Source: Bacilli bacterium (GTDB taxonomy: Bacteria > Bacillota_I > Bacilli_A > RF39 > UBA660). From it: a stretch of DNA of 64,000 bases. The position numbers were made by a program, and so were the translations under genes. The notes under the pieces are model-generated. The model was not told the origin of the DNA, did not search any database, and saw only the letters and a program-made list of their open reading frames with translations. Within the stretch, counting starts at the first letter, position 1; each line of letters opens with the position of its first letter. Of this stretch, positions 22,974 to 50,471 are shown piece after piece. The DNA lies in the NCBI GenBank assembly GCA_017513865.1, contig JAFWMN010000011.1, forward strand, positions 142,752-206,751. The letters run 5' to 3'.

Positions 22974-22987
22974 AATACATCCTCTCT

Positions 22988-23014: not shown

Positions 23015-23015
23015 A

Positions 23016-26000
23016 TTAATTTTTCCTTTTTACAAACTTAAGTGAACTAATTAAACCAGCAATACTTATTAATAATATTACCACATAAAGTATCACATTG
23101 TCACTTGTTTGTGGACTATTAGTTTTCTTTGTTTCAGAAGTTGCTGGCGCTGTTGGAGTCGCTTGATCACTAGAAACAGTTCTTGATGCAATTGCGAAAT
23201 CTGAGAATGAAGATGTTCTAAATGTTATTGTATTAGTTTCTGGATCATAAGAATCAGCTGAAATAATTTCATATTGATCACCATTATGAACATTATGAAC
23301 AATAACTATATCATTACCATCAACACCTTCTTCTAGCGTAATAGTAATTGTTACTAATTTATTTAATTCATCGATTTGACTTGACCAAACATCATTAGCA
23401 TCATTTTTACCTTTATAGAAAACATTATATAAATCTATATCTAAATAACTAGATATTTCATAATCACCAGCGTTTTCTTCAAAATTAGCAATCTTTTCTT
23501 CTGATAAGTTAACATCATTAACTGTAAGCTTTCCGGTACCACCATTTAAAGCACCAGATAAATCTATTGTTCCACTAGTAACTTTGTCAGAGTTTGCTGC
23601 TACTACATCTTGAACTCTTGTGAATGTAGCGGCAAAGTGAATATTAGTATCAGGCATTGTAAATGTATATTGATTAAGTGTATCCTGAGCTTCTAATTGC
23701 ATACCATTCGCACTAACACTTGTTAGTTGATATCCATAATCAGGAATAAATTCAAATACTACCTCATATCCAGGAGTTACAGGTACCCAGCCCATTCCTG
23801 TTTCAGCATCAACATCAACTACCCCTGAAACTTGTTGATGATTTTCATCATAGATAGCAATTACTTTAGCTTTACCATGTTCAAGTAGCATATCTTCATC
23901 AAAGTTTTCGGCATCTTCATCAGCATCAACATTTGCCCATATTATTGTTCTTGGTACAGCAACACTATCATCACCAGTACCACTTATCGTATATTTAACT
24001 GCTCCTGGTACAGTAATTGTCCAAGAATCATCATCATTTATATGAACATTATCACTATTTTCAGTATAATCTACACCATTTATTGTATAAGTTGTAACAA
24101 CTTTATCACCAAAACGAGGTTGCAAACGAATATCATTAGTTTCTCCAGCATCAGTATTACCTGCATTAGGAACAACTACTCCTTCATAAGTGAATGATTG
24201 TTGTTGGAAATCTTGACTTTCTTCAACAATTGTTATTCCATTTATTTGAGCATTTACAAAAGTATTTGTCCAAGAAAGATCAAATTCAATATCCTCATAA
24301 TTTTGATTTTGTCCAGGGGTTTGAGGATTTTCACCAATTAAATTAAATTCACCATCAATTCTTTCATGGTTGGCTTGAGTAAGACCTGTATAATTTTTTG
24401 TTGTTCCATCTAAAAGATTACCATTTTCTCTTAAATGAGCTTCATAACCTTGTGCTGGCACAGCTTCAACTGTCACATCACCCAAAGCATATATAAAATG
24501 TCTGTTATCACTATTTCGTGAAAATAAACCTTCACCAGTAACAACAACAGTATTACCATTTTCAAAAGTAACAGTAATTGATGAAGCATCATCAACTTCT
24601 GGCATATTTGTAACTGCGCCACCTATTTCTACATCTGCATAATCTGCCAAATTAGTTGTTTGTTCTTCCCATTTAGCATAGAAAGTAGCGTCGCCAGTAA
24701 TTGCCTGCTGGCCGAAATCAAATTCTGAACTAAATGTTGAATCTTCATACCATCCTCTAAACTCATATCCTTGTCTTTCAGGAACTTGAATTGGAGCAAT
24801 ACGTTCTCCGTCTTCAGCATACACTGTTACAAAATCGTTTTCATCACCATACATCATAAGGTTAAATGTTACCTCATGTTTATCGCCCCAAAGAAGAACT
24901 ATAGTCATATCATCATTAACAATTTCATTTCCAGTAAGTGCTACATGTTCAGGGGTTTCAAGACCAACTATATATTTAATTGGATTACTATGGGTTGGAT
25001 CTGGAAGTCCAGAATTTCCAAAAATTTCCATAATTGTTTGACCTTCAACACCAGTAACAGTATTTGGATTCATCGAATTACCACCATTTACATCAATTGT
25101 AATGGTAACATTTTTAAGCCATTTAGCATATATCGTTGTTGTTTCTGTAATTGCTTTACTAAAATTAAATTCAATTAAACCTGTACTATCTTCATACCAT
25201 CCAGCAAAAGTATAACCATCTCTTGTTGGATCTTCATCTGGTCTTTGAACTCTATATCCATGACTGACATTTACTTCACTTAAGTCCTCATTACCGCCAC
25301 CTTTATTTAAATCAAAAGTTACAGCGTGTTGCTCACCACTATCTAGAGTCCATAAAGCATGTACCGTTTCATCTTCCATAAATTCAAACTCTTCACCAGC
25401 AAAAAATCCACCGACTGGAGTCTCAAGTTCATCTCTTACTTGCCATTCTAAGAAAACATAACCATCTTTAACTGGAGTTGGTAAATTAATAACATCTCCG
25501 TCACTTCTTGTAATTGGTTCTATCGCTTCACCACCGTCTACATCAAACGTTAAAGTAGAAGTGCTTAAAGCTATAGTACCTAAATCAATATAAAGGTATC
25601 CACCCCAATCAAATAATTCATAATCTAATTGTGTATAACCATCATTAGTAATATCTACACCATTAAAATAAATTCTAGTATTACTATCAAATTCAAAACC
25701 ATCACGAGTATGGAGCGCTAAACGCATCGCATAATGTGTTGTTCCATCAGCAACAGCTCTAGCTGGTCCTTGTCCAAAACCATGCCAACTTGACATTCCT
25801 GTTGCCCAGTGTGACCAACCTGTGTTGCTTCCATATTCCTCAATATCAACATGTTCAGTGGACGTTTCAGCTTCAAAATAACCCAAAACTCCTGCTGAAA
25901 CACTATCAGTATCACTAGTAATTCTAATTTCATTTAGTTCTTCAGCATGTACTTTCATCATCGGAATAAATGGCAAGAAATTAAATAATGTCATAAGCAT

Positions 26001-26042
26001 TACCATAAAAACCGAAAATATTTTTTGACTAATCTTTTTCAT
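23016..26042 (-). CDS. Sortase-anchored surface protein with InlB B-repeats (Listeria-Bacteroides/Flg_new repeats)
   Basis: Signal peptide ending KVHA. Repeats of type VTFD..GG...P.R.GY.F.GWY.D.....FNF...IT...T.YAKW. C-terminal SPQTSD, TM and KFVKRKN. Confidence 0.85.
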   Translation of the reverse strand: MKKISQKIFSVFMVMLMTLFNFLPFIPMMKVHAEELNEIRITSDTDSVSAGVLGYFEAETSTEHVDIEEYGSNTGWSHWATGMSSWHGFGQGPARAVADGTTHYAMRLALHTRDGFEFDSNTRIYFNGVDITNDGYTQLDYELFDWGGYLYIDLGTIALSTSTLTFDVDGGEAIEPITRSDGDVINLPTPVKDGYVFLEWQVRDELETPVGGFFAGEEFEFMEDETVHALWTLDSGEQHAVTFDLNKGGGNEDLSEVNVSHGYRVQRPDEDPTRDGYTFAGWYEDSTGLIEFNFSKAITETTTIYAKWLKNVTITIDVNGGNSMNPNTVTGVEGQTIMEIFGNSGLPDPTHSNPIKYIVGLETPEHVALTGNEIVNDDMTIVLLWGDKHEVTFNLMMYGDENDFVTVYAEDGERIAPIQVPERQGYEFRGWYEDSTFSSEFDFGQQAITGDATFYAKWEEQTTNLADYADVEIGGAVTNMPEVDDASSITVTFENGNTVVVTGEGLFSRNSDNRHFIYALGDVTVEAVPAQGYEAHLRENGNLLDGTTKNYTGLTQANHERIDGEFNLIGENPQTPGQNQNYEDIEFDLSWTNTFVNAQINGITIVEESQDFQQQSFTYEGVVVPNAGNTDAGETNDIRLQPRFGDKVVTTYTINGVDYTENSDNVHINDDDSWTITVPGAVKYTISGTGDDSVAVPRTIIWANVDADEDAENFDEDMLLEHGKAKVIAIYDENHQQVSGVVDVDAETGMGWVPVTPGYEVVFEFIPDYGYQLTSVSANGMQLEAQDTLNQYTFTMPDTNIHFAATFTRVQDVVAANSDKVTSGTIDLSGALNGGTGKLTVNDVNLSEEKIANFEENAGDYEISSYLDIDLYNVFYKGKNDANDVWSSQIDELNKLVTITITLEEGVDGNDIVIVHNVHNGDQYEIISADSYDPETNTITFRTSSFSDFAIASRTVSSDQATPTAPATSETKKTNSPQTSDNVILYVVILLISIAGLISSLKFVKRKN

Positions 26043-28509: not shown

Positions 28510-29196
28510 ATGAGTGAAGTTATTAGTAATAATTATGATTCTGAACATCAGGCTTTAGACATTGTAAGTAGTGATCACAATGAAACAGATATTATAGCTT
28601 TAGAAAATGGTATAGTTGAAACCGTTATTAAAAATAAAAAAACAACAGATCATAATACTAAAGGAAATGACACTTATGGTAATTACATTAAAATAAAACA
28701 AACCGATGGTAAAGAAGCATTATATGCTCATATGAAATATGGCAGTATCAATGTTAATGTTGGTGATTTTGTTGAAAAAGGATCTATCATAGGAACAATG
28801 GGTTCAACTGGAAACGCTTATGGTAACCACCTACACCTAGAAGTGAAAAATGAAAATGGTATAAAGGAAAATCCACTAATTTCTCTAAATAAGCCAATTG
28901 AAGAAAAAAAAGAAGAAACTAAAGAAATTTCAAAAGAAAACGCCGTAACAGAACCACCAAAAGAAGAAACAAAAAAAGAAGAAAAAACTATCATTAAAAA
29001 TGAATATTTAAATAATACAGAATATAATGATGGTTCGATTGTTGATGCACTAAAAGAAATAAATATTGATAGTTCATATCAATATAGAAAAAAACTAGCG
29101 ATAGCTAACGGCATAACAAATTACCATGGTTCATATGATCAAAATGTAAAATTACTAAAACTTCTCAAAAATGGACAACTAAAAAAGGCTTATTAA
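28510..29196 (+). CDS. M23 family metallopeptidase with C-terminal DUF3597-like cell-wall-binding domain
   Basis: HxxxD (HQALD), YGNY, YAHM, HLH zinc motifs. C-terminal SIVDALK...DSSY..RKKLA..NGITNY.GS..QN..LL. True start may be 28486. Confidence 0.85.
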   Translation: MSEVISNNYDSEHQALDIVSSDHNETDIIALENGIVETVIKNKKTTDHNTKGNDTYGNYIKIKQTDGKEALYAHMKYGSINVNVGDFVEKGSIIGTMGSTGNAYGNHLHLEVKNENGIKENPLISLNKPIEEKKEETKEISKENAVTEPPKEETKKEEKTIIKNEYLNNTEYNDGSIVDALKEINIDSSYQYRKKLAIANGITNYHGSYDQNVKLLKLLKNGQLKKAY

Positions 29197-30602
29197 AGCC
29201 TTTTTATATTTCTTCTAACTTTTTTATTGTTTTGTGAGTCTTCATCTAACGATAAGCCAATTAAAATAATAGCCAAATTTTCTTTATACAAAACTTCATC
29301 AACCGTAATACCTAGCATACGAGCAATTTCTTCACTTGAATATACATTAGAAATTACCCCATAGCGTTTATTTAAAATATAACGAGTATCCGCATCAAAT
29401 ATACTAGTATCAAAATTTTTAATTATATCGCGCGTTACATTAAAATTATCTATATCTGTAAGAATAATTTCTTTAGAAAATTCATCCTGCTTATTATCTT
29501 CTTTCTTATCTATAGTAACAGGTTTAGAGTAATCTCCATTTAAGTATCTAATAATTTTACTATTTCGTCTAATTTTATTCAAAATGATTTTTTCAAGTTG
29601 CCCAACACGTGTTGTTGAAATTCCTAATTTTTTACCAATTTCTGCAAGAGTATGGGTTTTTCCATTGTAAAATCCATAACGCAAACAAAGTATTTCTTTT
29701 TCTCTATCATTAAATCCTATATCATCAATAATATCCATAAATTCTTTAGAAAAAAATTTATTATCAACATCTATAAAAGAATCTTCAGCCGGAATGAAAT
29801 CAACTAAAATATCTTCTTGATCATTGACAGTTTCATCCAAACTTCTACTATAAATTAATGTTTGTGTCTCTAAAATTTTATCTAATTCTGAAGAAGAAAT
29901 TTCCAAATTATTTAAAATCTCTTCCCTACTTGGAATATGCCCTAGTTTTTGACATAAAGCAATTTTTGCACTCTCAAATTCATTAATCTTTTTTCGAAAA
30001 TAAACAGGTATTCTAATCATTGAAACATCATTAGAAATATATTCACTTATATAACGTTTAATCCACCAAGTCGCATAAGTTGAAAACTTAACTTCTTTTT
30101 CAATATCAAACCTTTTTAAAGCCTCAATCATTCCCAAAATACCCTCTTGCCATAAAACCTCAAGTTCACCATTTGCCGCATATTTTTTGGCAATAGAAAA
30201 AGCTAATCGCAAATTGTTATTAATAAACTGATCACGATACTCTAAAGAACGATTAATTGCTCTATCAAGAATTGTTTTTTTTCCTTCTAAAGAAGCTTTT
30301 TCATAGCGCTCTTTAAAATAAGGTTTAACCTCTCCATAATATTTTATATATAATTGTTTTAAATTATCATCAACCTCATCGTAATAAGACAACTTTGTTT
30401 TTTTAATAAAATCAAGCTCTTCTTTTAAGGAATATTTTATATAATTTGTTTTAGAAAATAAATCATGAACAACACTATTTGTAAGAATACCTCCACTATC
30501 GTTTGAAGATATCGCACTTTCTTCGTTTTCTGAATCATAATCAATTTCTTTATTTTCAAAATCAAATATTTCTTCTTTCCTTAGTTCATAATCAAATAGC
30601 AT
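29193..30602 (-). CDS. Sigma-70 family factor (RpoD-like regions 2-3-4 plus a second region-4-like domain)
   Basis: NLRLAFSIAKKY, QEG.LG...A...FD.EK..KFSTYATWWI, IRIPV, REKEIL.LRYG...TLAEIG, and a second RYILNKRYG...SEEIARMLG. Confidence 0.85.
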   Translation of the reverse strand: MLFDYELRKEEIFDFENKEIDYDSENEESAISSNDSGGILTNSVVHDLFSKTNYIKYSLKEELDFIKKTKLSYYDEVDDNLKQLYIKYYGEVKPYFKERYEKASLEGKKTILDRAINRSLEYRDQFINNNLRLAFSIAKKYAANGELEVLWQEGILGMIEALKRFDIEKEVKFSTYATWWIKRYISEYISNDVSMIRIPVYFRKKINEFESAKIALCQKLGHIPSREEILNNLEISSSELDKILETQTLIYSRSLDETVNDQEDILVDFIPAEDSFIDVDNKFFSKEFMDIIDDIGFNDREKEILCLRYGFYNGKTHTLAEIGKKLGISTTRVGQLEKIILNKIRRNSKIIRYLNGDYSKPVTIDKKEDNKQDEFSKEIILTDIDNFNVTRDIIKNFDTSIFDADTRYILNKRYGVISNVYSSEEIARMLGITVDEVLYKENLAIILIGLSLDEDSQNNKKVRRNIKRL

Positions 30603-31154: not shown

Positions 31155-31241
31155 ATTATCACTCCGTTTCTATATTTTAACACATTTTATGATAATTGTT
31201 AAAAAAAATTAAAACAATAAAAAAGGATGACCATAATCATC

Positions 31242-31913
31242 CTACGGGTTTTGTGCTTGTGAAGTATCTGACTGTGCCTGTGAAGTATCTGACTGTGCTT
31301 GCGCAGTACTTGACTGCGAAGCAATATCTTGGGTAGCTGTAATCTTAACATGAATCTCAATTTCATTTTCAAGAGGATAAGTATTTTTAAAATCATATGA
31401 TGCTTTTCCCCAATATGTATCAAGAGCATCATCACCTGACTCATAAGGCCAAACAATAAGCATCTGAAAGTTTGTACTATCAGTAATTCCAATTGTCGGA
31501 TTACCAACCGAAAAAGTTATTGTAAATGGATAATTATTAGCTAACATACTCTCAAGCTGTGCTGAAGTATAATTATCATTAGTATAAGTATTCTCAAATA
31601 TTTTAACCGATGTCAGTTCATATATAATATTTGCAGGCATTTCACCGGAATTTCTAATATTAATGGTATCAGTATAATTACTCATACCTGGATAAATATC
31701 CGAAACATTAAAGACAACATTATTAACTAAAGTAGTACCATTTTGCGCAAAAGTAATTTTCCAAGATTTTACACCCGCATTAATTGTCGCAGCAATCTTA
31801 TTACTATAAATAAACCACGCAAATGCATTAGCCATAAACATAAGTACAAGGAAAAATATTGTCCTTCGCCTAAGTCCTTTTTTTAATTTAACATGACTAC
31901 CCTTGCTCTTCAT
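31242..31913 (-). CDS. SipW-type-signal-peptide protein (TasA/CalY-like filament subunit candidate)
   Basis: Basic N-terminus, hydrophobic helix, NAFA|WF, beta-rich body with IYPG and WPYESG.D..DT.WG. Overlaps the adjacent sipW. Confidence 0.65.
   Translation of the reverse strand: MKSKGSHVKLKKGLRRRTIFFLVLMFMANAFAWFIYSNKIAATINAGVKSWKITFAQNGTTLVNNVVFNVSDIYPGMSNYTDTINIRNSGEMPANIIYELTSVKIFENTYTNDNYTSAQLESMLANNYPFTITFSVGNPTIGITDSTNFQMLIVWPYESGDDALDTYWGKASYDFKNTYPLENEIEIHVKITATQDIASQSSTAQAQSDTSQAQSDTSQAQNP
31252..31310 (-). repeat. 21-bp coding tandem repeat (SQAQSDT, about 2.8 copies)
   Basis: TGTGCYTGTGAAGTATCTGAC at 31252-31272 and 31273-31293, plus a partial copy. Confidence 0.85.
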
Positions 31914-32466
31914 TTTGAACCTTTTCTTCCTTTTCCTTTATAAAATCAAGAATTTCCAAAAATATTAATAGAGCAATTGGAACAAAAACAAGAAAATAAA
32001 ACCCATATGAATTATTAAGTATATGACTAAGTAAACTTAAAGTAACCGGCTTATACTTAACAACTCCGTAAACTTGTTTTTGATTAACTAAAGGATCTGG
32101 TTCAGGATTACTTATACCTTGTGTTTTATATGTGTAATCTTTACCGTTATAATTAATATTAATAACACGGTGCGTAATAATTTTTCCTTTATAATCCTTT
32201 TCTTCACCCATATAAACTAAATCATCGCCGATTTTAATCTTATCATAATCTTTACTTCCGACGATAATAACGTCACCAATTTCATACTCTGGAACCATAC
32301 TGCCGGTAGCAATAGTGAATATGCGAAAATTGCTTATTGTAACTTTATTGTTAAAAACTCTTTGCACAAGAATAACGGCTACTATGAGAATAGCAATTAC
32401 CCAAATAATAGCTCTCAAAATACCAACTATTATTTTAAATGCTTTATTATTCATTATTTTTTTCAT
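31897..32466 (-). CDS. sipW: Signal peptidase I, SipW/ER-type (S26B), intact
   Basis: TGSM catalytic Ser, GD, ITHRV catalytic His, N- and C-terminal TMs. Confidence 0.9.
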   Translation of the reverse strand: MKKIMNNKAFKIIVGILRAIIWVIAILIVAVILVQRVFNNKVTISNFRIFTIATGSMVPEYEIGDVIIVGSKDYDKIKIGDDLVYMGEEKDYKGKIITHRVININYNGKDYTYKTQGISNPEPDPLVNQKQVYGVVKYKPVTLSLLSHILNNSYGFYFLVFVPIALLIFLEILDFIKEKEEKVQNEEQG

Positions 32467-33565
32467 TTTTCTTCACCTTCAAATCATGATCTTTCGCCAT
32501 GTAAAGTTCAATTGCCTCTTTATATTTTTTAGCTATCGCACTTGTATCAACAACTTTTCGATATTTAACTTTAACATATTCATCACCGATGAGCCGCATA
32601 ACATCTTCTACTGAAAGTTGATCACTGATACTAAGTAATTGATTAACGGTATTTTCTGCAACTTTATTTTGAAGTTCTTCTTTCGGTTTTTCTTCTTCGC
32701 CATCAGCTGATTTCATTATCAAATAATTAAGCATAAATGAGTCATTCATCATCTGTTTCAATGCACCATTATCTTCATATCCATCATTTTTATTTTCATT
32801 TTTGCTACTTGGTTCCATATGTGACTGCATGTAGTTCCAAAGATCTAATGCATATTGAAAATTAACATTTTTTAAAATTAAATTAGTTTTTTTAATTGGT
32901 GAAACTACTGGAGCCACATGTAATTTAGCGATATCTTTATAAACACTTGTACTACATAAATCTGTAATTCGCTGCTCAAGCTTTTCTATTCTACCAGAGA
33001 TATCATCGCCTTTAGCATTCTTATCATCTAAATCACTTTTAATCTGTAAAGCAAGTTCTAATTTTTCTTTATTGACATTTGCTGTACCTCGATACTCTAA
33101 AGAACGATGTTCTTTCTTAAACGTTCCACTAATTGTTTCAGTTTTTTTTCTTTCTATATACATTTTCATATTATTGATAAGCGTATATATAAATCTATTT
33201 TCATAAGTATTAAAACTTTCTTCTTTATTAATATTTAAAATTTTAGAGGGTTTTACCTCATTAGTTTCTGGATCATATTTTTGAATAAAGTTCGTATTTC
33301 TAGATAGATGTTTTATACTATCAACCGTAATTCTTCTAGCAAGTTCAATTTTAACAATTTCCTCTTCATTAACAATAAATCTATTAGGGTTTCTAAGAAT
33401 ATTATCAAGATATCTAACGGTTTCCTCCATCTTCGTAAGCCATTCATCATCATACGCCCCGCTGTTGATTTTTCTTGAAACATTTAACGTTGACTTAACT
33501 GATGAATTAAAAGCTTTTCTTTTAGTATCATCCATATTGTTATAAAGATTAATAATATTGTTCAT
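32447..33565 (-). CDS. DUF2357 (McrC N-terminal-like) protein without a nuclease domain
   Basis: EESFNTYENRFIYTLI and KKTNLILKN.NF..A..LW. No PD-(D/E)xK motif visible. Directly downstream of the McrB-like gene. Confidence 0.75.
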   Translation of the reverse strand: MNNIINLYNNMDDTKRKAFNSSVKSTLNVSRKINSGAYDDEWLTKMEETVRYLDNILRNPNRFIVNEEEIVKIELARRITVDSIKHLSRNTNFIQKYDPETNEVKPSKILNINKEESFNTYENRFIYTLINNMKMYIERKKTETISGTFKKEHRSLEYRGTANVNKEKLELALQIKSDLDDKNAKGDDISGRIEKLEQRITDLCSTSVYKDIAKLHVAPVVSPIKKTNLILKNVNFQYALDLWNYMQSHMEPSSKNENKNDGYEDNGALKQMMNDSFMLNYLIMKSADGEEEKPKEELQNKVAENTVNQLLSISDQLSVEDVMRLIGDEYVKVKYRKVVDTSAIAKKYKEAIELYMAKDHDLKVKKNEKNNE

Positions 33566-33578
33566 AAAATCACTTCCA

Positions 33579-35120
33579 TTAAGTTAGTTTCTTAAGTCTG
33601 AGTAAATACTCCTCACATTCTTTCATAGCCCCTTTACCAAATGTTGTATCTAAAAATTCAATAAACCCATCAATCTCATCGCGAATATATGAGATATTTA
33701 ATTGTTCAAATTTTCTTAAAATTTTTCTGGCAATAAAGTAATCAACACCGTCTACTTCTTTTCCCCCACAAGCCACATAAACTGGTACAAACTTACGCAT
33801 GTGGGCAACAATACGGTTACCGAAAGCGATACGGAAATGTTTAATAACATAATTATCCATTTCCTCTATTTTGTTAAGCATTTCTTGACTTACTTCATTA
33901 TCTTTAATTGCTGTCATAAACATATTGTTTAAATAAGAATAATTAATATCTTGTGCTGGAATATTATCAGGTTCAAAAACTTCACCCTTATCATTTATAT
34001 CAATTGGCATCGCACGGTCGTACACTTTGTCAGTAACCATAAATGTTGAGTCATCGTTGTTGATTGTTCCTATATACCAAACATTAGGGCTTATTTTAAG
34101 TTTTCCATCAATTAATTTAATTGGGTCATTACCCCAACCACTAGAAACAAGCTCAACAATCCACTCATCTTGGTTTGGCATTTCCAAAATAGAAAGCATT
34201 TCTGCAAAATAATACTCAACTCTGGCGATGTTCATTTCATCCAAGATTACTGTAAATATATCATCAGTATATCCTGCTTCATATATAGTTTTAAGAACAT
34301 CAGTTTCATTAAATTTTTTAGTGAATTCGTTAAAATAACCAAATAATTCAGTACGATCACGCCAAGATGGTTGTACAGAAGCTACACATGAATCGTGTTT
34401 CAAGAATTTTCCCCAAGCATAAGCAAGCGATGTTTTACCAGTACCAGAGATACCTTGAAGGATGATTAACTTCGTAGATGCCAGAGCGGCAATAAAGATT
34501 CTAATCATTTCAGTTTTATAATATAAACGAAGTTGACTAGCTGCAAAATGTCTAAATAATTCAACAAGTTCAGGTAATGTAAATGAGTTGTTATAATTTT
34601 TAACAACATAATCTTTAAATTCTTTATCGATATTATTAAGCTTAGCAAATCTTTTGCCTTCATCATCGTCATCCACTGTTTCAGCTGTCGCACTATCATT
34701 TTCAGTTTTAACCTCTTCAGTATCAGGTTGATCTGGTCTCAATCCTAAATGAGATACTTTCATTGCTAAAATATCTTCTTTTTCTTTTACCAATGTTGAA
34801 ACTTCATTATTTAAAGTTGCAACCTCATTTAATAAATCCTCTTGTTCAACAAAACTCTTTCTAAAACGAATATATTTTCTAATTAGTAAAAAGAGCAAGA
34901 AAATAAGTCCACCCATGACAACTACCATTAAAATTATAGAAATAATAATGAATACCCACTCTGAACCATTAAAATCATCCTTATAAAAATTAAAGATTTT
35001 AAGATAACTTCTAAAGTCAAATACTTGCATAATTGCTTTCGCGATTGCATCAGCAATCGTCAAAAAACCACCAAAAAATTGACCTAGAAATTCATACAAA
35101 AATCTTAAAAATGTATCCAT
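33579..35120 (-). CDS. Membrane-anchored, coiled-coil McrB-like AAA+ NTPase
   Basis: N-terminal amphipathic helix, TM and coiled coil. Walker A GISGTGKT, Walker B ILDEMN, ARVEYYFAEMLS, GTINNDDST, VYDRA, FGNR. Confidence 0.85.
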   Translation of the reverse strand: MDTFLRFLYEFLGQFFGGFLTIADAIAKAIMQVFDFRSYLKIFNFYKDDFNGSEWVFIIISIILMVVVMGGLIFLLFLLIRKYIRFRKSFVEQEDLLNEVATLNNEVSTLVKEKEDILAMKVSHLGLRPDQPDTEEVKTENDSATAETVDDDDEGKRFAKLNNIDKEFKDYVVKNYNNSFTLPELVELFRHFAASQLRLYYKTEMIRIFIAALASTKLIILQGISGTGKTSLAYAWGKFLKHDSCVASVQPSWRDRTELFGYFNEFTKKFNETDVLKTIYEAGYTDDIFTVILDEMNIARVEYYFAEMLSILEMPNQDEWIVELVSSGWGNDPIKLIDGKLKISPNVWYIGTINNDDSTFMVTDKVYDRAMPIDINDKGEVFEPDNIPAQDINYSYLNNMFMTAIKDNEVSQEMLNKIEEMDNYVIKHFRIAFGNRIVAHMRKFVPVYVACGGKEVDGVDYFIARKILRKFEQLNISYIRDEIDGFIEFLDTTFGKGAMKECEEYLLRLKKLT

Positions 35121-35131
35121 TATATCACCTT

Positions 35132-36127
35132 CTAACTATTTGGTATACTATTTGGTATATATATAATATTATAATCAACCTTCACCTTATCATAAATTTG
35201 TTCATCATCAGTAACTATAAAAACAAATAATTTAAGTAATTTTAAATTTTCTTCATTAAACTCAAAAGTTTTATCAATTTTTAAAGCCACTTTATACCCT
35301 TCTCTTGTAAGTTCAAACACTTTTTCTCTATTAGAAAGAAAATCTTCATAGCTTAGCTTTAATATTAATTTTTCTTTTATAATATCATTATTTATATATT
35401 TTAATAATCTTTGATTTTTTTTAGGTTTGCTGGCTATTGAAAACTCATAATCAACAATATAAGTTTTTGTAAAGTTTCCCTTAATAATATCTTGTAAAGC
35501 TCTAACTGTTGCAATCGGATAAGTTACAAAAAGCTTTTGCTCACTAATACTTTTACTGTTGAAAACTTTACTAATCGCATAATCACTATATAATTTAGAA
35601 AATTTTAAGTTGTGCTCTAACACACAATAAAATATTTGGTCTTTAACTTTAACATAATTCATTGTAAAATTTTTATCATCAAAACTTTCTAAAAACTCTT
35701 TTTTAGCCAACAAATCTTTCTCAAGCATATTATATAATTTGGCTTCAAAATCACTATCAACCAATTTTAAATAAACTATTCGCACTTTTTTTATTTCATT
35801 TATTATTTTTCTAGCTGAATCGCATTCCACAACCCCATCAAAAACTAAAATATATTTAAACATTTGGAACATATATTTTGCTTTATCCCTAAACTTAAGA
35901 TCATCCTTTACTTTTTGCAAAGATTTTTTTAAATAGTAAACAATATTTTCTTCAAATCGCTCACTAACAACTGGATATAAATTATAATACCTTGTGTTAA
36001 TATATGCATTAATCAAATCATCATATATATCCTGATCAAAATAATGTTCCAAAATAAGCTCTAAATATCTCTTAATCGCATTTTGTGAATAAGAAATATA
36101 CTCTGTGGCAATATCATAGTTCATCAA
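35132..36127 (-). CDS. Hypothetical protein, C-terminal half resembling a degenerate EAL domain
   Basis: Spacing of LILKLSY...ELTREGYKVALKID...LKLLKLFVFIVTD parallels EAL LEITE...L...G..IA.DDF...L..L..D.IKID. Acidic catalytic residues are absent. Confidence 0.45.
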   Translation of the reverse strand: MMNYDIATEYISYSQNAIKRYLELILEHYFDQDIYDDLINAYINTRYYNLYPVVSERFEENIVYYLKKSLQKVKDDLKFRDKAKYMFQMFKYILVFDGVVECDSARKIINEIKKVRIVYLKLVDSDFEAKLYNMLEKDLLAKKEFLESFDDKNFTMNYVKVKDQIFYCVLEHNLKFSKLYSDYAISKVFNSKSISEQKLFVTYPIATVRALQDIIKGNFTKTYIVDYEFSIASKPKKNQRLLKYINNDIIKEKLILKLSYEDFLSNREKVFELTREGYKVALKIDKTFEFNEENLKLLKLFVFIVTDDEQIYDKVKVDYNIIYIPNSIPNS

Positions 36128-36135: not shown

Positions 36136-37083
36136 CTAATATCTATAAGTAACAGTTAAAACATTACTATTACTATAATCGGCATTTTTATTCTTTTTAT
36201 AAAATTTAATAACACTACTAATGCTTGAATCCATATCAAATTTAAATTTTTTAACATAATTGTATCCACCGATAGATTGTGTTTCGATATCATATGCTTT
36301 AATAAAATCAGAAGATGTATTATCTATTAAAACAACCGTTGGGTCAAAGGCAACTGTAATTATTGCGGAAGCACACTTTCTTTTATTAATATCGGTAAGA
36401 ACATCATATATAGCTTTACTAATGTGGTTTCCCTCTGTATAAGTAACAGTATTTCCAGAAACAGTATCACTAAAACTCTCTTTAACAAGATAAGAATCCA
36501 AAGTATTTGTAACCCTAAGTGTCAAATAAGGATCACCTGCACTATCTTCAATTGAATGTCCAAGGCCATATTTACCAACAATCAAAGTAAAAGTAGCAGA
36601 AAGTTCCTTCACATAAGGACTTGTAGATGAAGCATAAACACTAAAAGTGACACTATCATTATCATTAAAAATTGCATTCGGTGTCATGGTAAAAGTAAAA
36701 TTATCAGTATTTGAATTTGCTGAAACTGTCCCACTCGTTTTAGACAAACTACATATAACATTGTTAGGGCAAGAATATCTAGTTGTATATGTTATATCAT
36801 GAGAACTTTTCAATTTGTCATTTTTAAAACTATTTATATTTATAGCAATATCATAAGGATCTACACCATTCCAATAATTCAAAGAATAACTAGCTGCCGG
36901 ATCTTTTAATTTATCACTTTCAAAAAAGAAATTTTGTGTTAAAAAATATAAATTTAAAACTCTTTTGTAAACATATTTACCAAAACTAACAGTTAAGGTA
37001 AGAGACATCATACATATGAAAACAACGATGATATATTTTTTAACCTTTGAAAGTTTATGAACTCTAATTTTTCTTTTCAGCAT
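36136..37083 (-). CDS. SipW-type-signal-peptide protein (minor filament subunit candidate)
   Basis: Basic N-terminus, hydrophobic helix, VSFG|KY, FFFESDKL, Ser/Thr-rich beta domains. Confidence 0.6.
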   Translation of the reverse strand: MLKRKIRVHKLSKVKKYIIVVFICMMSLTLTVSFGKYVYKRVLNLYFLTQNFFFESDKLKDPAASYSLNYWNGVDPYDIAININSFKNDKLKSSHDITYTTRYSCPNNVICSLSKTSGTVSANSNTDNFTFTMTPNAIFNDNDSVTFSVYASSTSPYVKELSATFTLIVGKYGLGHSIEDSAGDPYLTLRVTNTLDSYLVKESFSDTVSGNTVTYTEGNHISKAIYDVLTDINKRKCASAIITVAFDPTVVLIDNTSSDFIKAYDIETQSIGGYNYVKKFKFDMDSSISSVIKFYKKNKNADYSNSNVLTVTYRY

Positions 37084-37552: not shown

Positions 37553-37713
37553 CTAGCATCACCATAATAATTGTATCATAAATTTAAAGTATTTTAAAGT
37601 ATTACCACGAATAAAACCCTACTCTTTTAAAAAAAATGATATAAAATTTTTGATTAAGTAATAAATAGTATTCATAAGTTGTTTTTTTTGGCACAAAACA
37701 TCTGTTAAAGCAC

Positions 37714-37737
37714 AAAAAAAGGAAGTAAATACTTCCT
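37714..37737 (-). terminator. Intrinsic terminator after 37743..38786
   Basis: AGGAAGT-ATTT-ACTTCCT followed by T run on the minus strand. Confidence 0.7.
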
Positions 37738-37742: not shown

Positions 37743-38786
37743 TTATCCACCTTGTGATTGAGAGGTAATAGATACATCCACAATACTAAATTGTAAGTAG
37801 AAACTGATTTCTCCACCTGATGCATTGTTTTCACAGTCAACATCTTGTCCTTCAACCCACATATAAATACGCATTTTTGTAATACCAGCTAACAAACCAT
37901 TTGCTGCCGTTAATGTTTGACTAGTTGTATAACCTTCAACCGTTTTAATATCTGGATTAACATCAGTAAAATATTCAGAATGTAAAGTTTGTGTGGCTTG
38001 TTCACGTTTGATGCCTAAAGTATCAGCAAACTCTGCTTTTACTCCTGAATATGGAACCCAAGCATTACTAGTACCTTGACTTAAAGTCGTAATACCATAA
38101 GGGCTTATTGCGTTAGCAACACCATCGGCTGTATGAACATTGTAATTAGGCTCCCAAATTTTAACAGTTGATGAAGTTCCATCATTTAAAGCTCTAATGT
38201 TAGCAATAGAATCAGAAGTTGTCGTATGACCTAGTGTAACAAAAGCAACTCTAGTAGCATTTTTAATACCACTATCAGAATTTCTAAACGTTACTCGTGA
38301 GTTCGGAGTCATATATAAAGTTTCATTACTTTCGTTTTTAAGGAAAATATCAAACGCTATAAATTTACCTGAAGCTGTCGTATTAGTTTCAACAGATTGA
38401 GTTGCACTTAACACAAAGTCTCCGGTTGTCTCGTTAGCTATAACTTGCCCTAAAAACATTTTCATTTTACCAGTTGCATCCACATCACCAATTGTTGAAA
38501 CTGGTTCAAGCGTAGATGGAACTTGGTTAACCGCTGCTGTATATGTTGCAGAAGCCCCAGTTATATCAGAATTTATTAAAACTGACTTCCAGTTACTACC
38601 ATCTGCCGAAATTTGGATACCACTAGATGTAGATACGTTTACATCGATTGGGCTAATTGTTACTTTTTGGTTAGCCGTGAACCATGCAAATGATGCTGTT
38701 CCTAAAAACACGCCTGCGGCAAGTAATAACAAAAGAGTTAATAATAATCTTCTTTGTTTTCTTCCATTATTTTTTTGATTTGCCAT
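37743..38786 (-). CDS. SipW-type-signal-peptide protein, probable major filament subunit (TasA/CalY-like)
   Basis: RKQRR, Leu-rich helix, TASFA|WFTAN, C-terminal IYMWVEGQDVDC. Has its own promoter, AGGAGG RBS and terminator. Confidence 0.7.
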   Translation of the reverse strand: MANQKNNGRKQRRLLLTLLLLLAAGVFLGTASFAWFTANQKVTISPIDVNVSTSSGIQISADGSNWKSVLINSDITGASATYTAAVNQVPSTLEPVSTIGDVDATGKMKMFLGQVIANETTGDFVLSATQSVETNTTASGKFIAFDIFLKNESNETLYMTPNSRVTFRNSDSGIKNATRVAFVTLGHTTTSDSIANIRALNDGTSSTVKIWEPNYNVHTADGVANAISPYGITTLSQGTSNAWVPYSGVKAEFADTLGIKREQATQTLHSEYFTDVNPDIKTVEGYTTSQTLTAANGLLAGITKMRIYMWVEGQDVDCENNASGGEISFYLQFSIVDVSITSQSQGG

Positions 38787-38856: not shown

Positions 38857-39420
38857 TTATGTTTGCTCTGCATCAACTGTAACTTCAATCACATCAATCA
38901 AATCTTGAAAAATCGCACTTCTATAAGAAACAGGAAAATTAATGACTAAAGTGTATGTATCAGTTTTCTGAACACCATGGACAAAACTACCAACTTGGGG
39001 ATTATATCTATAAAAGTACATTCCATCATCATCTTGAATTGTTTCTTTAGTACCGATAATATCTGTGTCCCCACCATTCGCATATAACTTATAAGAAACA
39101 GGGACATTAGTCGTTGTTTTTATCCGTAAAGTATAATCCATATCAACTTCACTAGTCTTTCCGTTTTTAAAATTTGAAACAGTAATACTATAACTAAAAT
39201 TTGAGCCATCAGGAGCTAACTCTCCAATTTTTATTTGCTGAGTTTGAGGGATAGGATCAATTACATAAAAAGCAATTTTGTTAGAAACAGTCCCTTCAGC
39301 ATCACTATGAAAAATTGAAAACACTGTTTTCATTAAAATTAATATGATAAAAAAACCAAAAACAGAAATGGTAATTTTATTAAATAATGTAAACTTTTGC
39401 TTATTTAACACTAGAACCAC
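38857..39420 (-). CDS. SipW-type-signal-peptide protein (minor subunit candidate)
   Basis: Hydrophobic helix, KTVFS|IF, ELAPDG, YSITVSNFKNGKTSEVDMDY (similar to the 36136 protein). Confidence 0.6.
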   Translation of the reverse strand: MVLVLNKQKFTLFNKITISVFGFFIILILMKTVFSIFHSDAEGTVSNKIAFYVIDPIPQTQQIKIGELAPDGSNFSYSITVSNFKNGKTSEVDMDYTLRIKTTTNVPVSYKLYANGGDTDIIGTKETIQDDDGMYFYRYNPQVGSFVHGVQKTDTYTLVINFPVSYRSAIFQDLIDVIEVTVDAEQT

Positions 39421-39976
39421 CCTTTTTGATTTTTATTCCCGAATAATAAATGCCAAAATCATCACTTTTTGTCAAAATTCTTTTCCCAGTATAAGAAAAA
39501 GCTAATGAGAACATAAACAATGTAAAACAAACTAATATAATGATTTTAGGCGTCGTAAAAACCTTATACCAGACACCCATATTTGGAAGGATTTTTACAA
39601 CTTTTCCGACAACCTGATCTTTTCCAATTTGCTTATCTCTAGCATTATTCGCATCACCTTTAGTAACAAAACCATTGCCGGTTTTAGAAATAACTCTATG
39701 GGTGACTAAAATATCACCATCTTTATAAGTTATAACATCATCAACATCGACATTTTTAGTTATCTTAACTAAAATTAAATCATTTGTCGTAATTGTTGGA
39801 GCCATACTGTTACTACCTATTTGAAATAACGTATGTGAAAAGAAACTAGCATAACTGTTGGATAGAATATTTAAAGAAACAAATAAATATATACAAATAC
39901 CCAAAACAATAAATAATAATGCCGAAAACACTTTACTCACTATCTTTACAAAACTATATAAATAGTCTCTTTTCAT
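39401..39976 (-). CDS. sipW: Signal peptidase I, SipW/ER-type (S26B), intact
   Basis: SNSMAPT catalytic Ser, VTHRV His, TKGDANN..D. Confidence 0.92.
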   Translation of the reverse strand: MKRDYLYSFVKIVSKVFSALLFIVLGICIYLFVSLNILSNSYASFFSHTLFQIGSNSMAPTITTNDLILVKITKNVDVDDVITYKDGDILVTHRVISKTGNGFVTKGDANNARDKQIGKDQVVGKVVKILPNMGVWYKVFTTPKIIILVCFTLFMFSLAFSYTGKRILTKSDDFGIYYSGIKIKKGGSSVK

Positions 39977-39992
39977 ATTCTATCACCACCTT

Positions 39993-40562
39993 CTATTCTA
40001 TATGCTGACTAAAACTAATACTAACTGGTATTTCAAAATAACCATCAGCTGATCCCATCGCTGAATCAGTAACATCATGATTACCATCATCATTCCAAGT
40101 AAAAGTTACTCTTATAGTATCTGTTACACCATTAATTATATCAGATAAAGGAAAAACTCTACCATAAACGCCATTATTAGCCGTAAGATTAGTCCCGTTA
40201 ATTCCCTGAATACTATCGATCGTAATTTGATCATACAAAGAATTACTTAAATCAATAGATATTTGATACTCAAAAGAAACTTCCGTATCCCCTGGATCAA
40301 TTTCAAGGAGAAAAGAACCAGTAACCCCTGGTGCAAATCTACCCGCACTAACACTTTGATTATTTGTATAAGTTATATTATCAACATAAAAAGTATTAGT
40401 TGTATTATTTAAATCATAATCATTAACATATATGTGCCACTTTGCTATATCTATATCGCTATCTTCAGTAAACCTTGTTTCAAAAACACCAAAACTTCTA
40501 GTAATTTGAAAAAAAGTTAAAACAAGAAATAGACAACTTATAACTGTTAACGTTTTTTTCAT
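39993..40562 (-). CDS. SipW-type-signal-peptide protein (minor subunit candidate)
   Basis: MKKTL start at 40562 coupled to the upstream stop. TRSFG|VF, AKWHI.VN, FAPG, TWNDDG..D.TDS.MG. Confidence 0.65.
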   Translation of the reverse strand: MKKTLTVISCLFLVLTFFQITRSFGVFETRFTEDSDIDIAKWHIYVNDYDLNNTTNTFYVDNITYTNNQSVSAGRFAPGVTGSFLLEIDPGDTEVSFEYQISIDLSNSLYDQITIDSIQGINGTNLTANNGVYGRVFPLSDIINGVTDTIRVTFTWNDDGNHDVTDSAMGSADGYFEIPVSISFSQHIE

Positions 40563-40563
40563 A

Positions 40564-41349
40564 TTATAAATATTCAATGTCATCTTTTTCTGAAGAAGTT
40601 TGATTGGTTACTTGAACCTCAGGTGTAACAGGCTTTTCCGCACCTTGATCTTGAACCTGCTTTTCAGTAGTTACTTGTGATTCTACTGCTGGAGTTTCAA
40701 CTACTGGCTCTGCTACTGGTGCAGCCTCTACTTTTGGAGCTTCAGTCACTGGTGTTTCAACCTCTGTAGTAGCTACTGCAGGCTGAACTTCTTGAGCTGG
40801 CTCTACTATTTTAACAGGTTCTTCTTTAGCTTCTTCAGCTGGCGCTTTTAACTCTTTTACAAATCTATAAATGGCATAGAAGAAAAGTAATAATGCTGGT
40901 AAAATTACCAAAATTAAGAAACCATACTGTGATTCAAATATATATAATATTTTTCCTACATTATGATAAACTTTAGCAGTAGATGTCTTACCAATAACTA
41001 AATCACTAGAAACGAGGTGTTCTCCATTTATATTAAAAGCAACTTCAGCATCAGAATTTTCTACTGTTGCTGTGACTTTACCATATCTTACTTTAGATTC
41101 ACCCTTAGTAATTTCATAGAAGAAAATTTCATCACCCGAAGTGATTTCGCTATCCGGATTCTTTGTAAAAATAGCTAAATCCCCATCTTCATACATGTCA
41201 CTTTCATTATCAATGATAATAAAAGTTTTGTCTTTTATCTGTGTAACTTTATATTGGTTATAACAAAGCAAACATACAGTTGCAAATAAAATTACTGCCA
41301 AATAAATAGTACCAATAATCCCTAAAATAATTTTTAAAAACTTTTTCAT
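40564..41349 (-). CDS. Catalytically degenerate SipW-like protein with Pro/Ala/Glu/Val-rich cytoplasmic tail
   Basis: TM, EDGDLAIF, ITSGDEIFFY, LVIGK, YGFLILVILP TM. No catalytic Ser or His. About 95-aa low-complexity tail. ATG at 41349 is 7 nt from GAGGAG. Confidence 0.65.
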   Translation of the reverse strand: MKKFLKIILGIIGTIYLAVILFATVCLLCYNQYKVTQIKDKTFIIIDNESDMYEDGDLAIFTKNPDSEITSGDEIFFYEITKGESKVRYGKVTATVENSDAEVAFNINGEHLVSSDLVIGKTSTAKVYHNVGKILYIFESQYGFLILVILPALLLFFYAIYRFVKELKAPAEEAKEEPVKIVEPAQEVQPAVATTEVETPVTEAPKVEAAPVAEPVVETPAVESQVTTEKQVQDQGAEKPVTPEVQVTNQTSSEKDDIEYL

Positions 41350-41401
41350 ATCCACACTCCTCTATCATAATTCTATCACAAAATAATAAATTTACATAGT
41401 A

Positions 41402-42916
41402 TTAATTTAAATCTATGGCTTTTATCATTTTAGCATCCCTTAATTTAGAAATTGGTATTCCCAATACCTTCATTTGATAATTGGTAACAATTCTCTCCAA
41501 ATCAGAAATTAAACTTTCAATCGAACTTTCATCCGCTAAAGACTCTTCAATATTAATATTTAACATTTTATAATTTGTTATTATTATATCTGAAAGTTCA
41601 CGTTCTTCTAAAATCGTAACATTATTAATTAAAGTATTACTTGGATCCATTGTAAAATCAAACAACTCATCAATTCTTTGATCAATAACATCATAAGTTA
41701 TGCCTTCTTCTTTTTCTTTAAAGTAATCAGCTAAAATTTTATAATATTGACAAGCTAATAATAATACTTTAAAAAGCGTCGAATTATCTCTGATATGTTC
41801 TTTAATAGCAACTTTAAATATGTTAGTATCTATTTCATCATATAAAGCTTTAATTTCCGCTATTTTTGCGTTTATTTCAGGTTCTACTTTAGAAGTGCTG
41901 GTTTTAGATTCTTTACTAGCGTCTTTCTTATTTAATTTAAATAATTTGCCTTCTAAACCAGAAATTTTTTTAAGCGTTTTTTTCATATAATCTTTTTCAA
42001 TATTATCTTTATATAATTCCCTAGCTTTATCAATTAAATCTTTATATTTCAAATAACTTTTATATTCTTTAAGTGAGTTTAACAACTGTTTTATAACTAC
42101 AATTTTACTTTCATCATAATCATTATTTTTAAATAAATTTGCTGTTATAGCTGCGATTTTTTCATCAGTATATTCCTCAATATCTTTATTTTGATTATAA
42201 AAATCTAAAATCATATTTGTTTTACTAGAAAACTCTTTTTGTTTTCTTCTTAAAAAATTATAATCATCTAAAATACTTGTTTCTGCTTTAGTAAAACGCT
42301 CTTTAACTTGCCTATTTACAAGTTCAATATATTTTTCACAGCGGGCTTTATTTTTTAAATACAAGTATCTAAGATTTAATTCAACTCTAATCATAATATC
42401 TGGACATTTCCAATAAACATTATCAAAAACCTCTTTGATTTTTTGATTAGTAAGACCTTCTTCAAAAAACATTGGTACGTACTCATGAACTTCGTTTGTA
42501 TAATTAAAATCTTTAACCATAAGCGGACAGTTAGCTGCTTTAAAAATATTGATTGCCTTCAGTATCTTAATATTATTATTAATAAGTTCATCATCACTAT
42601 AATTTGTAAGCTGATAAACTATTTTATCTAAATCTAATTTTTCATATGCGGTACTTAAGGTATTAGTATAAGAAAGTGCTTTTAAAAGATTTTTTAAAAC
42701 TACATCATTATTAGAAATCTCTTCATATTTTAAGTTTTCAAAAGGTTCTAACCTTCGTTTAAGTTCTGTCTTAACATCATCAATTTTCTTTTGATAACTT
42801 TCCATTTCTAAAGAAATTTCTTTTAAAAATCTTTCTTTATTCTTTTTATTATTAACCGGAAGCCCATTTAAAAGTTCTTCAGTAAGTTCTATTTCTTTTT
42901 CTAATTTTTCAAGCAT
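41402..42916 (-). CDS. Hypothetical all-alpha/coiled-coil cytoplasmic protein
   Basis: About 504 aa from ATG 42916, overlapping the upstream stop. Lys/Glu-rich helices, VYWKCPD motif, no TM. Confidence 0.6.
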   Translation of the reverse strand: MLEKLEKEIELTEELLNGLPVNNKKNKERFLKEISLEMESYQKKIDDVKTELKRRLEPFENLKYEEISNNDVVLKNLLKALSYTNTLSTAYEKLDLDKIVYQLTNYSDDELINNNIKILKAINIFKAANCPLMVKDFNYTNEVHEYVPMFFEEGLTNQKIKEVFDNVYWKCPDIMIRVELNLRYLYLKNKARCEKYIELVNRQVKERFTKAETSILDDYNFLRRKQKEFSSKTNMILDFYNQNKDIEEYTDEKIAAITANLFKNNDYDESKIVVIKQLLNSLKEYKSYLKYKDLIDKARELYKDNIEKDYMKKTLKKISGLEGKLFKLNKKDASKESKTSTSKVEPEINAKIAEIKALYDEIDTNIFKVAIKEHIRDNSTLFKVLLLACQYYKILADYFKEKEEGITYDVIDQRIDELFDFTMDPSNTLINNVTILEERELSDIIITNYKMLNINIEESLADESSIESLISDLERIVTNYQMKVLGIPISKLRDAKMIKAIDLN

Positions 42917-43211: not shown

Positions 43212-43222
43212 ACTAATACCTC

Positions 43223-50419: not shown

Positions 50420-50471
50420 AACATCACCTCCTACTTTCTTATTTAACTTAAGGATATTTAATTTATTAACA

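Follow-up and report, generated by a model that had tools for sequence, protein, structure and literature searches.

McrBC is the textbook modification-dependent restriction enzyme, which raises the question of what a nuclease-less, membrane-tethered version of it is doing when its genes lie against that of a signal peptidase. We took up this question for a locus in a 64,000-nucleotide stretch (here called the window) of contig JAFWMN010000011.1 from a Bacilli bacterium of the RF39 lineage (assembly GCA_017513865.1), in which an McrB-like AAA+ nucleoside triphosphatase (NTPase) and an McrC-like partner are encoded next to sipW. The locus is very probably of the CoCoPALM type, i.e., a membrane-anchored McrB GTPase of the NxD branch together with a nuclease-less DUF2357 activator, set among genes for putative SipW-dependent surface fibres. 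This class was named by Bell et al. (eLife 2024, PMC11090510) in three sentences, with its analysis deferred to "a separate, forthcoming publication". Our literature search for a follow-up found only that paper and its preprint, and the supplements of the CoCoNuT paper do not mention CoCoPALM. A preliminary description of this DNA had pointed to an uncharacterised class from the same survey; the class was the right one, and the name given for it, CoCoPAL, was wrong. The present locus is a typical member of CoCoPALM. New here are the component list, a fusion of SipW to an EAL-like protein, the presence of dead peptidases, and the pattern of conservation.

An McrB-like GTPase of the NxD branch with a membrane anchor

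The McrBC-like pair consists of exactly two minus-strand open reading frames (ORFs), of 513 and 372 aa, whose positions are given in Table 1 along with those of all other features. When a profile of the 513-aa protein and 26 relatives was compared by hhalign to the AAA+ core of Escherichia coli McrB, the match had a probability of 96.9% (E 1.5e-10, 166 columns), with Walker A, Walker B, the F.E..S..E block, and the sensor Asn all in register. The McrB-family motifs listed in the preliminary description, GTINNDDST included, are present as quoted there. The motif block LDEMNIARVEYYFAEMLSILE contains the Walker B residues D294 and E295 along with N297 and R300, and the Walker B sequence VILDEMN is followed by IARVEYYFAEMLSILE. 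VILDEMNIAR occupies residues 291-300, and in the family alignment the residues of Walker A and of Walker B/N..R are invariant, as are N354 and D356 of GTINNDDST. The protein itself has no match to Pfam AAA_5 at E≤0.1, and that family is recorded for its more distant relatives. Sequence and profile searches of the PDB returned no match for the McrB-like protein, for its McrC-like partner, or for the family of the 347-aa secreted protein discussed below.

An exhaustive search with the AAA+ domain retrieved 8,038 cluster representatives at E≤1e-3, of which 732 fell at E≤1e-30. Most of the best 150 of these relatives carry the signature GT[AI]N-x-D-[DE]-S, in which the Asp lies two residues past the sensor Asn, and it is this NxD, usually followed by D or E, that defines the McrB branch in question (Bell et al., PMC11090510). 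We would like to note that an ungapped alignment with the E. coli NTAD also allows an NxxD reading for the window's protein. The same 150 relatives have three architectures: proteins of 450-560 aa with one or two membrane helices, proteins of 550-700 aa with three, and soluble proteins of 700-870 aa, one of which is followed by an overlapping gene for a 756-aa DUF2357 protein in a CoCoNuT-like arrangement.

The N-terminus holds no DNA-binding domain and is made up of a membrane helix, a stalk, and an acidic linker, in agreement with the earlier suggestion that a transmembrane helix and coiled coil had taken that domain's place. The hydrophobic segment covers residues 49-86, peaks at 3.26 on the Kyte-Doolittle scale, and recurs in the relatives with one or two membrane helices; the heptads of the stalk follow at residues 90-121. 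By the positive-inside rule, a basic stretch after a membrane helix marks the cytoplasmic side, and since RKYIRFRK follows the helix here, the AAA+ domain is predicted to be cytoplasmic. Among 60 orthologues, median identity is 91% in the AAA+ core and 80% in the stalk, compared with 38% in the membrane helix and 39% in the acidic linker. Because the stalk is conserved while the helix and linker drift, it looks like a specific interaction surface. We also considered whether the gene is a decayed remnant and rejected this, with all of its NTPase motifs intact and its core conserved to the degree just given.

A DUF2357 partner with no nuclease

The 372-aa partner matches Pfam DUF2357 (PF09823) at 5.1e-14, with 52.5 bits against a cut-off of 23.3, and its gene adjoins that of an McrB homologue in 158 loci. 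The best 120 of its 3,516 homologues have PF09823 only and are mostly of about 370 aa. The family alignment shows two highly conserved blocks, at residues 47-141 and 215-247, that are split by a variable helical insert. Median identity among orthologues is 82% in the DUF2357 match (residues 51-156) and 85% in the second block, compared with 38% in the insert and 32% in the C-terminus. The last 125 residues, after position 247, have no invariant D or E in the alignment, and a C-terminus so variable and with no invariant acidic residue cannot hold a conserved D...(D/E)xK site. No C-terminal PD-(D/E)xK nuclease was found in the McrC-like protein, in its best 120 homologues, or in its longer relatives, and for the window's protein this absence is read from the sequence, the single-sequence AlphaFold2 (AF2) model being unusable (mean predicted local distance difference test score, pLDDT, 37.6). 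Searches with Pfam, NCBIfam, and PADLOC likewise found no nuclease among the neighbours of the pair, where the only enzyme-like protein is the one with a degenerate EAL-like fold described below. The preliminary description of the partner as a DUF2357 protein without nuclease is therefore borne out.

An hhalign comparison of the McrC-like family to E. coli McrC gave no match. This null is not informative because E. coli McrC falls in a Pfam family other than DUF2357. In the short helical insert (residues ~186-205), the window's protein has a weak coiled-coil-type Pfam match and no heptad segment of 28 aa or longer. In other lineages the McrC-like core is followed by 170-550 coiled-coil residues with no further Pfam domain, giving proteins of 541-925 aa in total.

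Linkage of the pair to sipW and its conservation

As noted in the preliminary description, the McrC-like gene does overlap sipW by 20 nt, and a Shine-Dalgarno-like AAGGTGA precedes the sipW ATG. Both genes belong to an apparent seven-gene unit (37552-31242) that encodes, in order, a pseudo-SipW, a 315-aa secreted protein, a 331-aa EAL-like protein, the McrB-like protein, the McrC-like protein, SipW, and a 223-aa secreted protein. The extent of the unit is suggested by a promoter-like site before the 162-aa pseudo-SipW gene and a terminator-like hairpin after the 223-aa gene, with the qualification that promoter-like matches are no commoner than chance in DNA this rich in AT.

The same arrangement of genes recurs in about 120 related loci of Bacilli with small genomes from the gut and rumen. 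We scanned a collection holding one genome per species and found 220 stretches encoding a relative, the best 80 of which are 69-95% identical and come from gut or rumen metagenome-assembled genomes (MAGs) labelled Bacilli, Tenericutes, Mollicutes, or "Clostridium sp. CAG:451/609/628/914"; we take the last four names to be those of the RF39 lineage. Some of the related records are 1.26 Mb long, and one of these is a circular chromosome. Throughout the non-truncated loci of this collection the seven genes keep their order while the other two modules of the locus move around them, and gaps at the junctions of the unit are at most 30 nt in 116/117, 130/158, and 120/121 cases. Between the McrC-like gene and sipW in particular, the gap stays within that limit in 120 of 121 loci, with an actual overlap in only 58 of the 121.

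Linkage to sipW is not peculiar to this genome, nor to this gene order. A metagenome scan turned up three further arrangements at 53-60% identity, in all of which a SipW gene touches the pair and in which proteins of the 347/328-aa type lie nearby, often beside proteins of 1000-2400 aa. The sipW linkage recurs in at least four gene arrangements. Relatives at 37-44% identity, known from a few short contigs, form tandem McrB-like/McrC-like pairs beside giant or leucine-rich-repeat surface proteins with no sipW in view, and one contig encodes a SipW fusion protein directly after the pair.

Of all genes in the locus, that of the McrB-like protein is the most conserved, with a median identity of 74% against 32-49% for its neighbours. 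It changes nearly as slowly as PcrA: in two genomes the McrB-like protein has 95.1% and 82.7% identity and PcrA 96.2% and 87.1%, respectively.

Several of the related loci have features of their own. In locus L086 (6475-13585), two consecutive membrane-tethered McrB-like genes alternate with genes for ~670-aa proteins, the first of which is DUF2357/McrC-like and the second unassigned. A 3176-aa protein is encoded next to them, and 21 kb contain no sipW. The linkage of the wider family may be to giant surface proteins and not to SipW in itself. All locus genes of L140 (VOFJ01000062.1) are split into many short ORFs, which looks like the product of an indel-rich assembly rather than true pseudogenes. 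Six loci (L001, L004, L005, L012, L015, and L018), 76-95% identical to the window over the McrB-like gene, bear the labels Muribaculaceae, Sphaerochaetaceae, Oribacterium, or Bacteroidaceae, and these are probably binning or naming errors in public MAGs.

A third component fused to SipW in other loci

The gene for the 331-aa protein always lies directly upstream of the McrB-like gene. No sequence-level family could be assigned to its product by searches of Pfam, NCBIfam, and the PDB. With an alignment of 27 homologues, AF2 produced a confident model (pLDDT 89.8, predicted template modelling score 0.87) of a helical bundle at residues 1-147 followed by an alpha/beta domain at residues 150-325. 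A Foldseek search of this model against the PDB returned EAL domains as 46 of its top 50 matches, with that of FimX the best (E 1.8e-4; template modelling score 0.38 by query and 0.49 by target). Pfam EAL is absent from the 18 members of the family that were searched, and the conserved residues of the family do not reproduce EAL, DDFG, and the other catalytic or ligand motifs. As modelled, the protein can be called at best a degenerate EAL-like domain protein.

In eight loci, the 331-aa protein is found as part of a SipW::EAL-like fusion. These 630-700-aa proteins match nearly the whole of the 331-aa model at E 1e-35 to 1e-42, their N-terminal ~230 aa being a SipW-type peptidase and their C-terminal half a full-length copy of the 331-aa type. 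They too are always encoded directly upstream of the McrB-like gene (L129:2951-4969, and in L130, L132, L133, L134, L143, L148, and L157). By Rosetta-stone reasoning, the fusion to SipW in eight loci suggests that the 331-aa protein works on or with the signal peptidase.

SipW-family peptidases and their candidate substrates

The locus has four SipW-family genes. Two encode active peptidases, of 189 and 191 aa, that retain the Ser (GSM/NSM), the His (THR), and the T.G..N...D block, and two encode dead paralogues, of 162 and 263 aa, that have lost the Ser, the His, and the GDxN block and retained both membrane helices. The two pseudo-SipW paralogues are probably non-catalytic subunits or scaffolds.

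Around the peptidase genes lie those for secreted proteins of two groups: the 187-, 196-, 223-, and 315-aa proteins are homologous to one another (hhalign 95-97%), and the 347- and 328-aa proteins are paralogues. All have a single N-terminal hydrophobic segment with small residues at -3/-1, followed by an aromatic strand, and the predicted cleavage sites are ASFA|WFTAN, TYA|WFSAN, AFA|WFIYSN, SFG|VFETR, VFS|IFHSD, and SFG|KYVYK. In the 347/328-aa family, 8 of 12 proteins match TIGR04088, the model of the SipW-cognate signal peptide (best 5.2e-5). The copy in the window itself fails this model at E≤1 yet has the GT.S[FY]AWF motif. Pfam and NCBIfam searches found no match for most of the secreted proteins, nor for the 525-aa and 2398-aa proteins of the third module. 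The flanking genes had been described earlier as pilin-like. Secreted proteins with signal peptides of the SipW-cognate type are indeed what they encode, and the word pilin itself is a presumption.

What the machinery may do

In our view the likeliest role of the pair, at even odds, is that of a GTP-driven, cytoplasmic, inside-out controller or assembly motor of SipW-dependent surface fibres, rather than that of a restriction enzyme or of a defence system. The secreted proteins of the locus would be exported by means of their SipW-cognate signal peptides and stay anchored in the membrane until cut. Once the signal peptide had been removed, an aromatic beta-strand (WFTAN, WFIYSN, VFETR) would be free at the N-terminus, in the manner of TasA-type donor-strand fibres. 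At the cytoplasmic side of the membrane, the McrB-like protein would form a ring, held there by six helices and the conserved stalk, into which the DUF2357 protein would plug to stimulate GTP hydrolysis as McrC does for McrB, a mode of activation that we infer from McrBC structures as summarised by Bell et al. (PMC11090510). Through the stalk and membrane helix, the ring may be coupled to SipW and the pseudo-SipW proteins, either directly or by way of the EAL-like protein. GTP turnover could in this manner gate or order signal-peptide cleavage in time and place and thereby control how fibre subunits and giant adhesins are set free to polymerise. We hold this mechanism as a whole, most of it inferred, with moderate confidence. 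A bolder version, which we offer tentatively and at somewhat less than even chances, is that the pair is the energy-transducing core of an unrecognised envelope machine, in which an exapted GTPase drives or gates both SipW processing and donor-strand polymerisation and the EAL-like protein acts as the adaptor for input. If true, it would add a new kind of motor for filament assembly, with no relation to PilB/FlaI, sortase, or chaperone-usher systems, and a whole order of gut Bacilli with reduced genomes would have it as a core feature.

Several points weigh against a role in fibre assembly. TasA-type fibres of Bacillus are not known to need a cytoplasmic NTPase, so that no place for a motor in them is established. 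The secreted proteins have no sequence match to TasA/camelysin (Peptidase_M73) or to a solved structure in Pfam, NCBIfam, and PDB searches, and the label "fibre" comes from the type of signal peptide and an analogy. No sipW was seen within the available short contigs of the membrane-tethered relatives at 37-44% identity. The fold match of the 331-aa protein to EAL domains is modest by both its E-value and its template modelling scores, and an hhalign comparison of the 331-aa family to E. coli PdeH gave no match (0.05%). A second, weaker hydrophobic stretch in the first 50 residues of the McrB-like protein leaves the topology ambiguous there. Finally, the AAA+ domain matches the PADLOC defence-candidate model PDC-M26A at 1.9e-35, and its nearest soluble relatives are predicted defence proteins (CoCoNuT).

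The last of these points leads to a first alternative, which is that the pair is a sensor for defence or abortive infection, i.e., a membrane GTPase that keeps watch on the fibre or envelope, which is probably a phage receptor, and responds to phage attack, in keeping with its McrBC/CoCoNuT ancestry. Besides the PDC-M26A match, it has in its favour that its most similar soluble relatives are found with DUF2357 partners in operons of the CoCoNuT type (Bell et al., PMC11090510). We nevertheless judge it unlikely. PADLOC found no defence component among six proteins of the locus beyond this AAA+-level match, and no nuclease, HEPN domain, or toxin effector was found in the pair or its neighbours. 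The fixed gene order and PcrA-like conservation across many species are unlike the patchy distribution and fast evolution of defence genes, and the locus lies outside any defence island, in a context of housekeeping and surface genes. Fixed synteny, slow evolution, the lack of an effector, and the housekeeping context together point away from defence, although they do not amount to proof. Defence finders such as PADLOC would flag the McrB-like gene, and the evidence suggests that such a call would be a false positive.

A second alternative, to which we give an equally low probability, is that the pair forms a membrane scaffold, a cytoskeleton-like positioner of surface-protein export or anchoring, or has an FtsB-like role in division, with GTP acting as a switch and not as a source of work. 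The N-terminal part of CoCoPALM proteins has been called FtsB-like, and the coiled coil is "usually" on the McrC homologue too (Bell et al., PMC11090510); the long McrC-like proteins of some relatives do have 400-600 coiled-coil residues, and distant relatives sit beside giant surface proteins with no visible sipW. However, the FtsB similarity was not reproduced for the window's protein (hhalign probability 0.7% against E. coli FtsB, with a single-sequence template and a low-information region, and so not a strong negative), its McrC-like partner has just the short helical insert, and the tight linkage that recurs is one to SipW and its substrates in particular. It is very improbable that the pair is a CoCoNuT-like, nucleic-acid-directed system with a nuclease in trans and a merely accidental, lineage-specific link to sipW, even though it belongs to an NxD coiled-coil clade with other members predicted to target RNA (Bell et al., PMC11090510), given its membrane tethering, the lack of a nucleic-acid-binding domain, and a linkage to sipW in at least four arrangements plus a SipW fusion of the adjacent protein, which an accident would not yield.

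If the controller or motor role is correct, a membrane-bound, nuclease-less McrBC joined to signal peptidases would show a restriction-type motor reused in envelope biology. Fibres of the SipW/TasA type are thought to assemble without cytoplasmic energy, and a dedicated GTPase would change this view for many uncultured gut bacteria. The locus takes up about 20 kb of a genome of about 1.25 Mb. The SipW::EAL-like fusion offers a testable handle on how cytoplasmic signals reach a signal peptidase.

Layout of the locus and its surroundings

The locus lies within a long run of minus-strand genes in AT-rich (~28% GC) chromosomal DNA. The same DNA carries alaS, pepF, dnaK, hrcA, ligA, pcrA, arcC, and potABCD, and in view of this housekeeping context we rejected an origin of the locus in a prophage or mobile element. 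Next to the seven-gene unit and the gene for the 347-aa protein are a second module, which shifts as a block between loci, and a third module (Table 1).

Table 1. Positions of the features of the locus in the window (a minus sign marks the minus strand)
Feature	Position	Strand	Basis or remark
Terminator-like hairpin just after the 223-aa gene	31224-31243		
223-aa secreted protein (ANAFA|WFIYSN), last gene of the unit	31242-31913	-	
Active SipW-type (ER-type) signal peptidase, 189 aa	31897-32466	-	TIGR02228 1.9e-24; catalytic positions kept
McrC-like partner, 372 aa, DUF2357 as its one domain, without nuclease or membrane helix	32447-33565	-	
Second conserved block of the partner, residues 215-247, past the variable insert	32825-32923	-	
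DUF2357 match, residues 51-156	33098-33415	-	Profile positions 94-198 of 251
McrB-like AAA+ NTPase, NxD branch, 513 aa, membrane-tethered	33579-35120	-	ORF, hhalign, motifs, PADLOC
Residues 198-372, AAA+ core in the alignment with E. coli McrB	34005-34529	-	
Signature GTINNDDST	34044-34070	-	
Walker B VILDEMN	34230-34250	-	
Walker A GISGTGKTS, residues 223-231	34428-34454	-	
Heptad/coiled-coil stalk, residues ~90-121, charged	34758-34853	-	Heptad scan
Transmembrane helix, residues ~55-80, then basic RKYIRFRK	34881-34958	-	Kyte-Doolittle
331-aa cytoplasmic protein, N-terminal helical bundle and putative degenerate EAL-like domain	35132-36127	-	
Putative EAL-like domain, residues ~150-325 of the 331-aa protein	35153-35680	-	AF2 and Foldseek
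315-aa secreted protein, N-terminal signal, SFG|KYVYK motif	36136-37083	-	Paralogue of the 187/196/223-aa proteins
Pseudo-SipW, 162 aa	37064-37552	-	TIGR02228 8.6e-8; hhalign to other SipW paralogues
Promoter-like site before the pseudo-SipW gene	37570-37598	-	Consensus match only
Terminator-like hairpin just after the 347-aa gene, inside the locus	37720-37737		
347-aa secreted protein (GTASFA|WFTANQ; C-terminal VYMWVEGQDVDCEN block), candidate major subunit	37743-38786	-	
Second module	38857-41355	-	Pseudo-SipW, secreted, active SipW, secreted
Secreted protein, 187 aa	38857-39420		Second module
Active SipW, 191 aa	39401-39976		Second module
Secreted protein, 196 aa	39993-40583		Second module
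Pseudo-SipW, 263 aa	40564-41355		Second module
Third module	41402-52149	-	Membrane protein, 328-aa protein, secreted giant, coiled-coil protein
Coiled-coil protein, 525 aa	41402-42979		Third module
Secreted giant, 2398 aa	43223-50419		Third module
328-aa protein	50472-51458		Third module
Membrane protein, 238 aa	51433-52149		Third module

The hairpin after the 347-aa gene gives a layout reminiscent of attenuation behind a major-subunit gene. In most related loci, the gene for the 2398-aa secreted protein, which has no Pfam match, accompanies those for the 238-aa and 328-aa proteins, and other giants are found in loci L086 (>2600 aa) and L139 (2391 aa).

Just downstream of the locus (29193-30602) is the gene for a 469-aa protein of the sigma-70 family that has a long extension at either terminus. 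It partially matches the model of the anti-phage sigma factor MzaA at 2.7e-45, far below that model's cut-off, and is only 47% identical in locus L001, where neighbouring genes reach 87-98%. Further away (21902-26042), a sortase gene lies beside one for a surface protein of 1008 aa that has Listeria-Bacteroides (Flg_new) repeats as well as a membrane helix at its C-terminus, which indicates that the organism has a wall and a second route for surface anchoring. An ORF6N-domain protein, of a kind typical of phage and mobile-element regulators, is encoded among housekeeping genes at 13165-14046. Gene orientation flips from minus to plus at 61750-61905 and the sign of the GC skew is reversed over the final 2 kb of the window (-0.26 to +0.13), a switch that could mark a replication origin or an inversion boundary.

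Comparison with known systems

The pair shares with E. coli K-12 McrBC the Walker A and B motifs, the DE.N..R...F.E..S..E block, the sensor Asn, and the two-gene McrB-McrC arrangement. It differs in that it has no DNA-binding domain, no PD-(D/E)xK nuclease, and NxD rather than NxxD, and in that it is anchored in the membrane; its partner has no detectable similarity to E. coli K-12 McrC. The CoCoNuT systems (CnuB/CnuC) are of the same NxD branch, and the AAA+ domain is ~40-46% identical to those of the soluble 700-870-aa coiled-coil relatives whose genes are followed by one for a DUF2357 protein. As here, the McrC homologues of CoCoNuTs often have no active nuclease. In contrast, CoCoNuTs are soluble, carry domains of RNA-binding type, and always stand beside HEPN or other nucleases, whereas the present system has a membrane helix and neither type of domain.

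From the side of the peptidase, the closest parallel is the tapA-sipW-tasA operon of Bacillus subtilis (PMC9674648, PMC9245690). In both, a dedicated ER-type signal peptidase is encoded among its substrates, and these have signal peptides of the SipW-cognate type with predicted cleavage just before an N-terminal beta-strand. The present locus differs in having no sequence match to TasA/camelysin and in its four peptidase paralogues, two of them dead, and its cytoplasmic NTPase pair and EAL-like protein are absent from the Bacillus system. The closest analogies in function, which we would not press further than that, are FimX(EAL)-PilZ-PilB, which governs type IV pili, and LapD-LapG-LapA, which controls a giant adhesin from the inside out; in the present locus, likewise, a degenerate EAL-type domain goes with the NTPase of a putative surface filament and, by way of the fusion, with a membrane-bound protease of surface proteins. 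FimX, with its degenerate EAL domain, regulates a pilus motor; unlike the FimX and LapD systems, the locus shows no GGDEF, PilZ, or HAMP parts, and the catalytic and binding motifs are not conserved.

The nearest system remains CoCoPALM itself. The description of that class does not mention an EAL-like component, a SipW fusion, dead SipW paralogues, SipW-cognate substrates, giant proteins, or housekeeping-like conservation within one clade, and the McrC-like coiled coil is minimal in the present member. What the locus and the described class have in common is an NxD McrB GTPase fused to a membrane helix and coiled coil, a DUF2357 partner, and adjoining genes of the signal-peptidase family.

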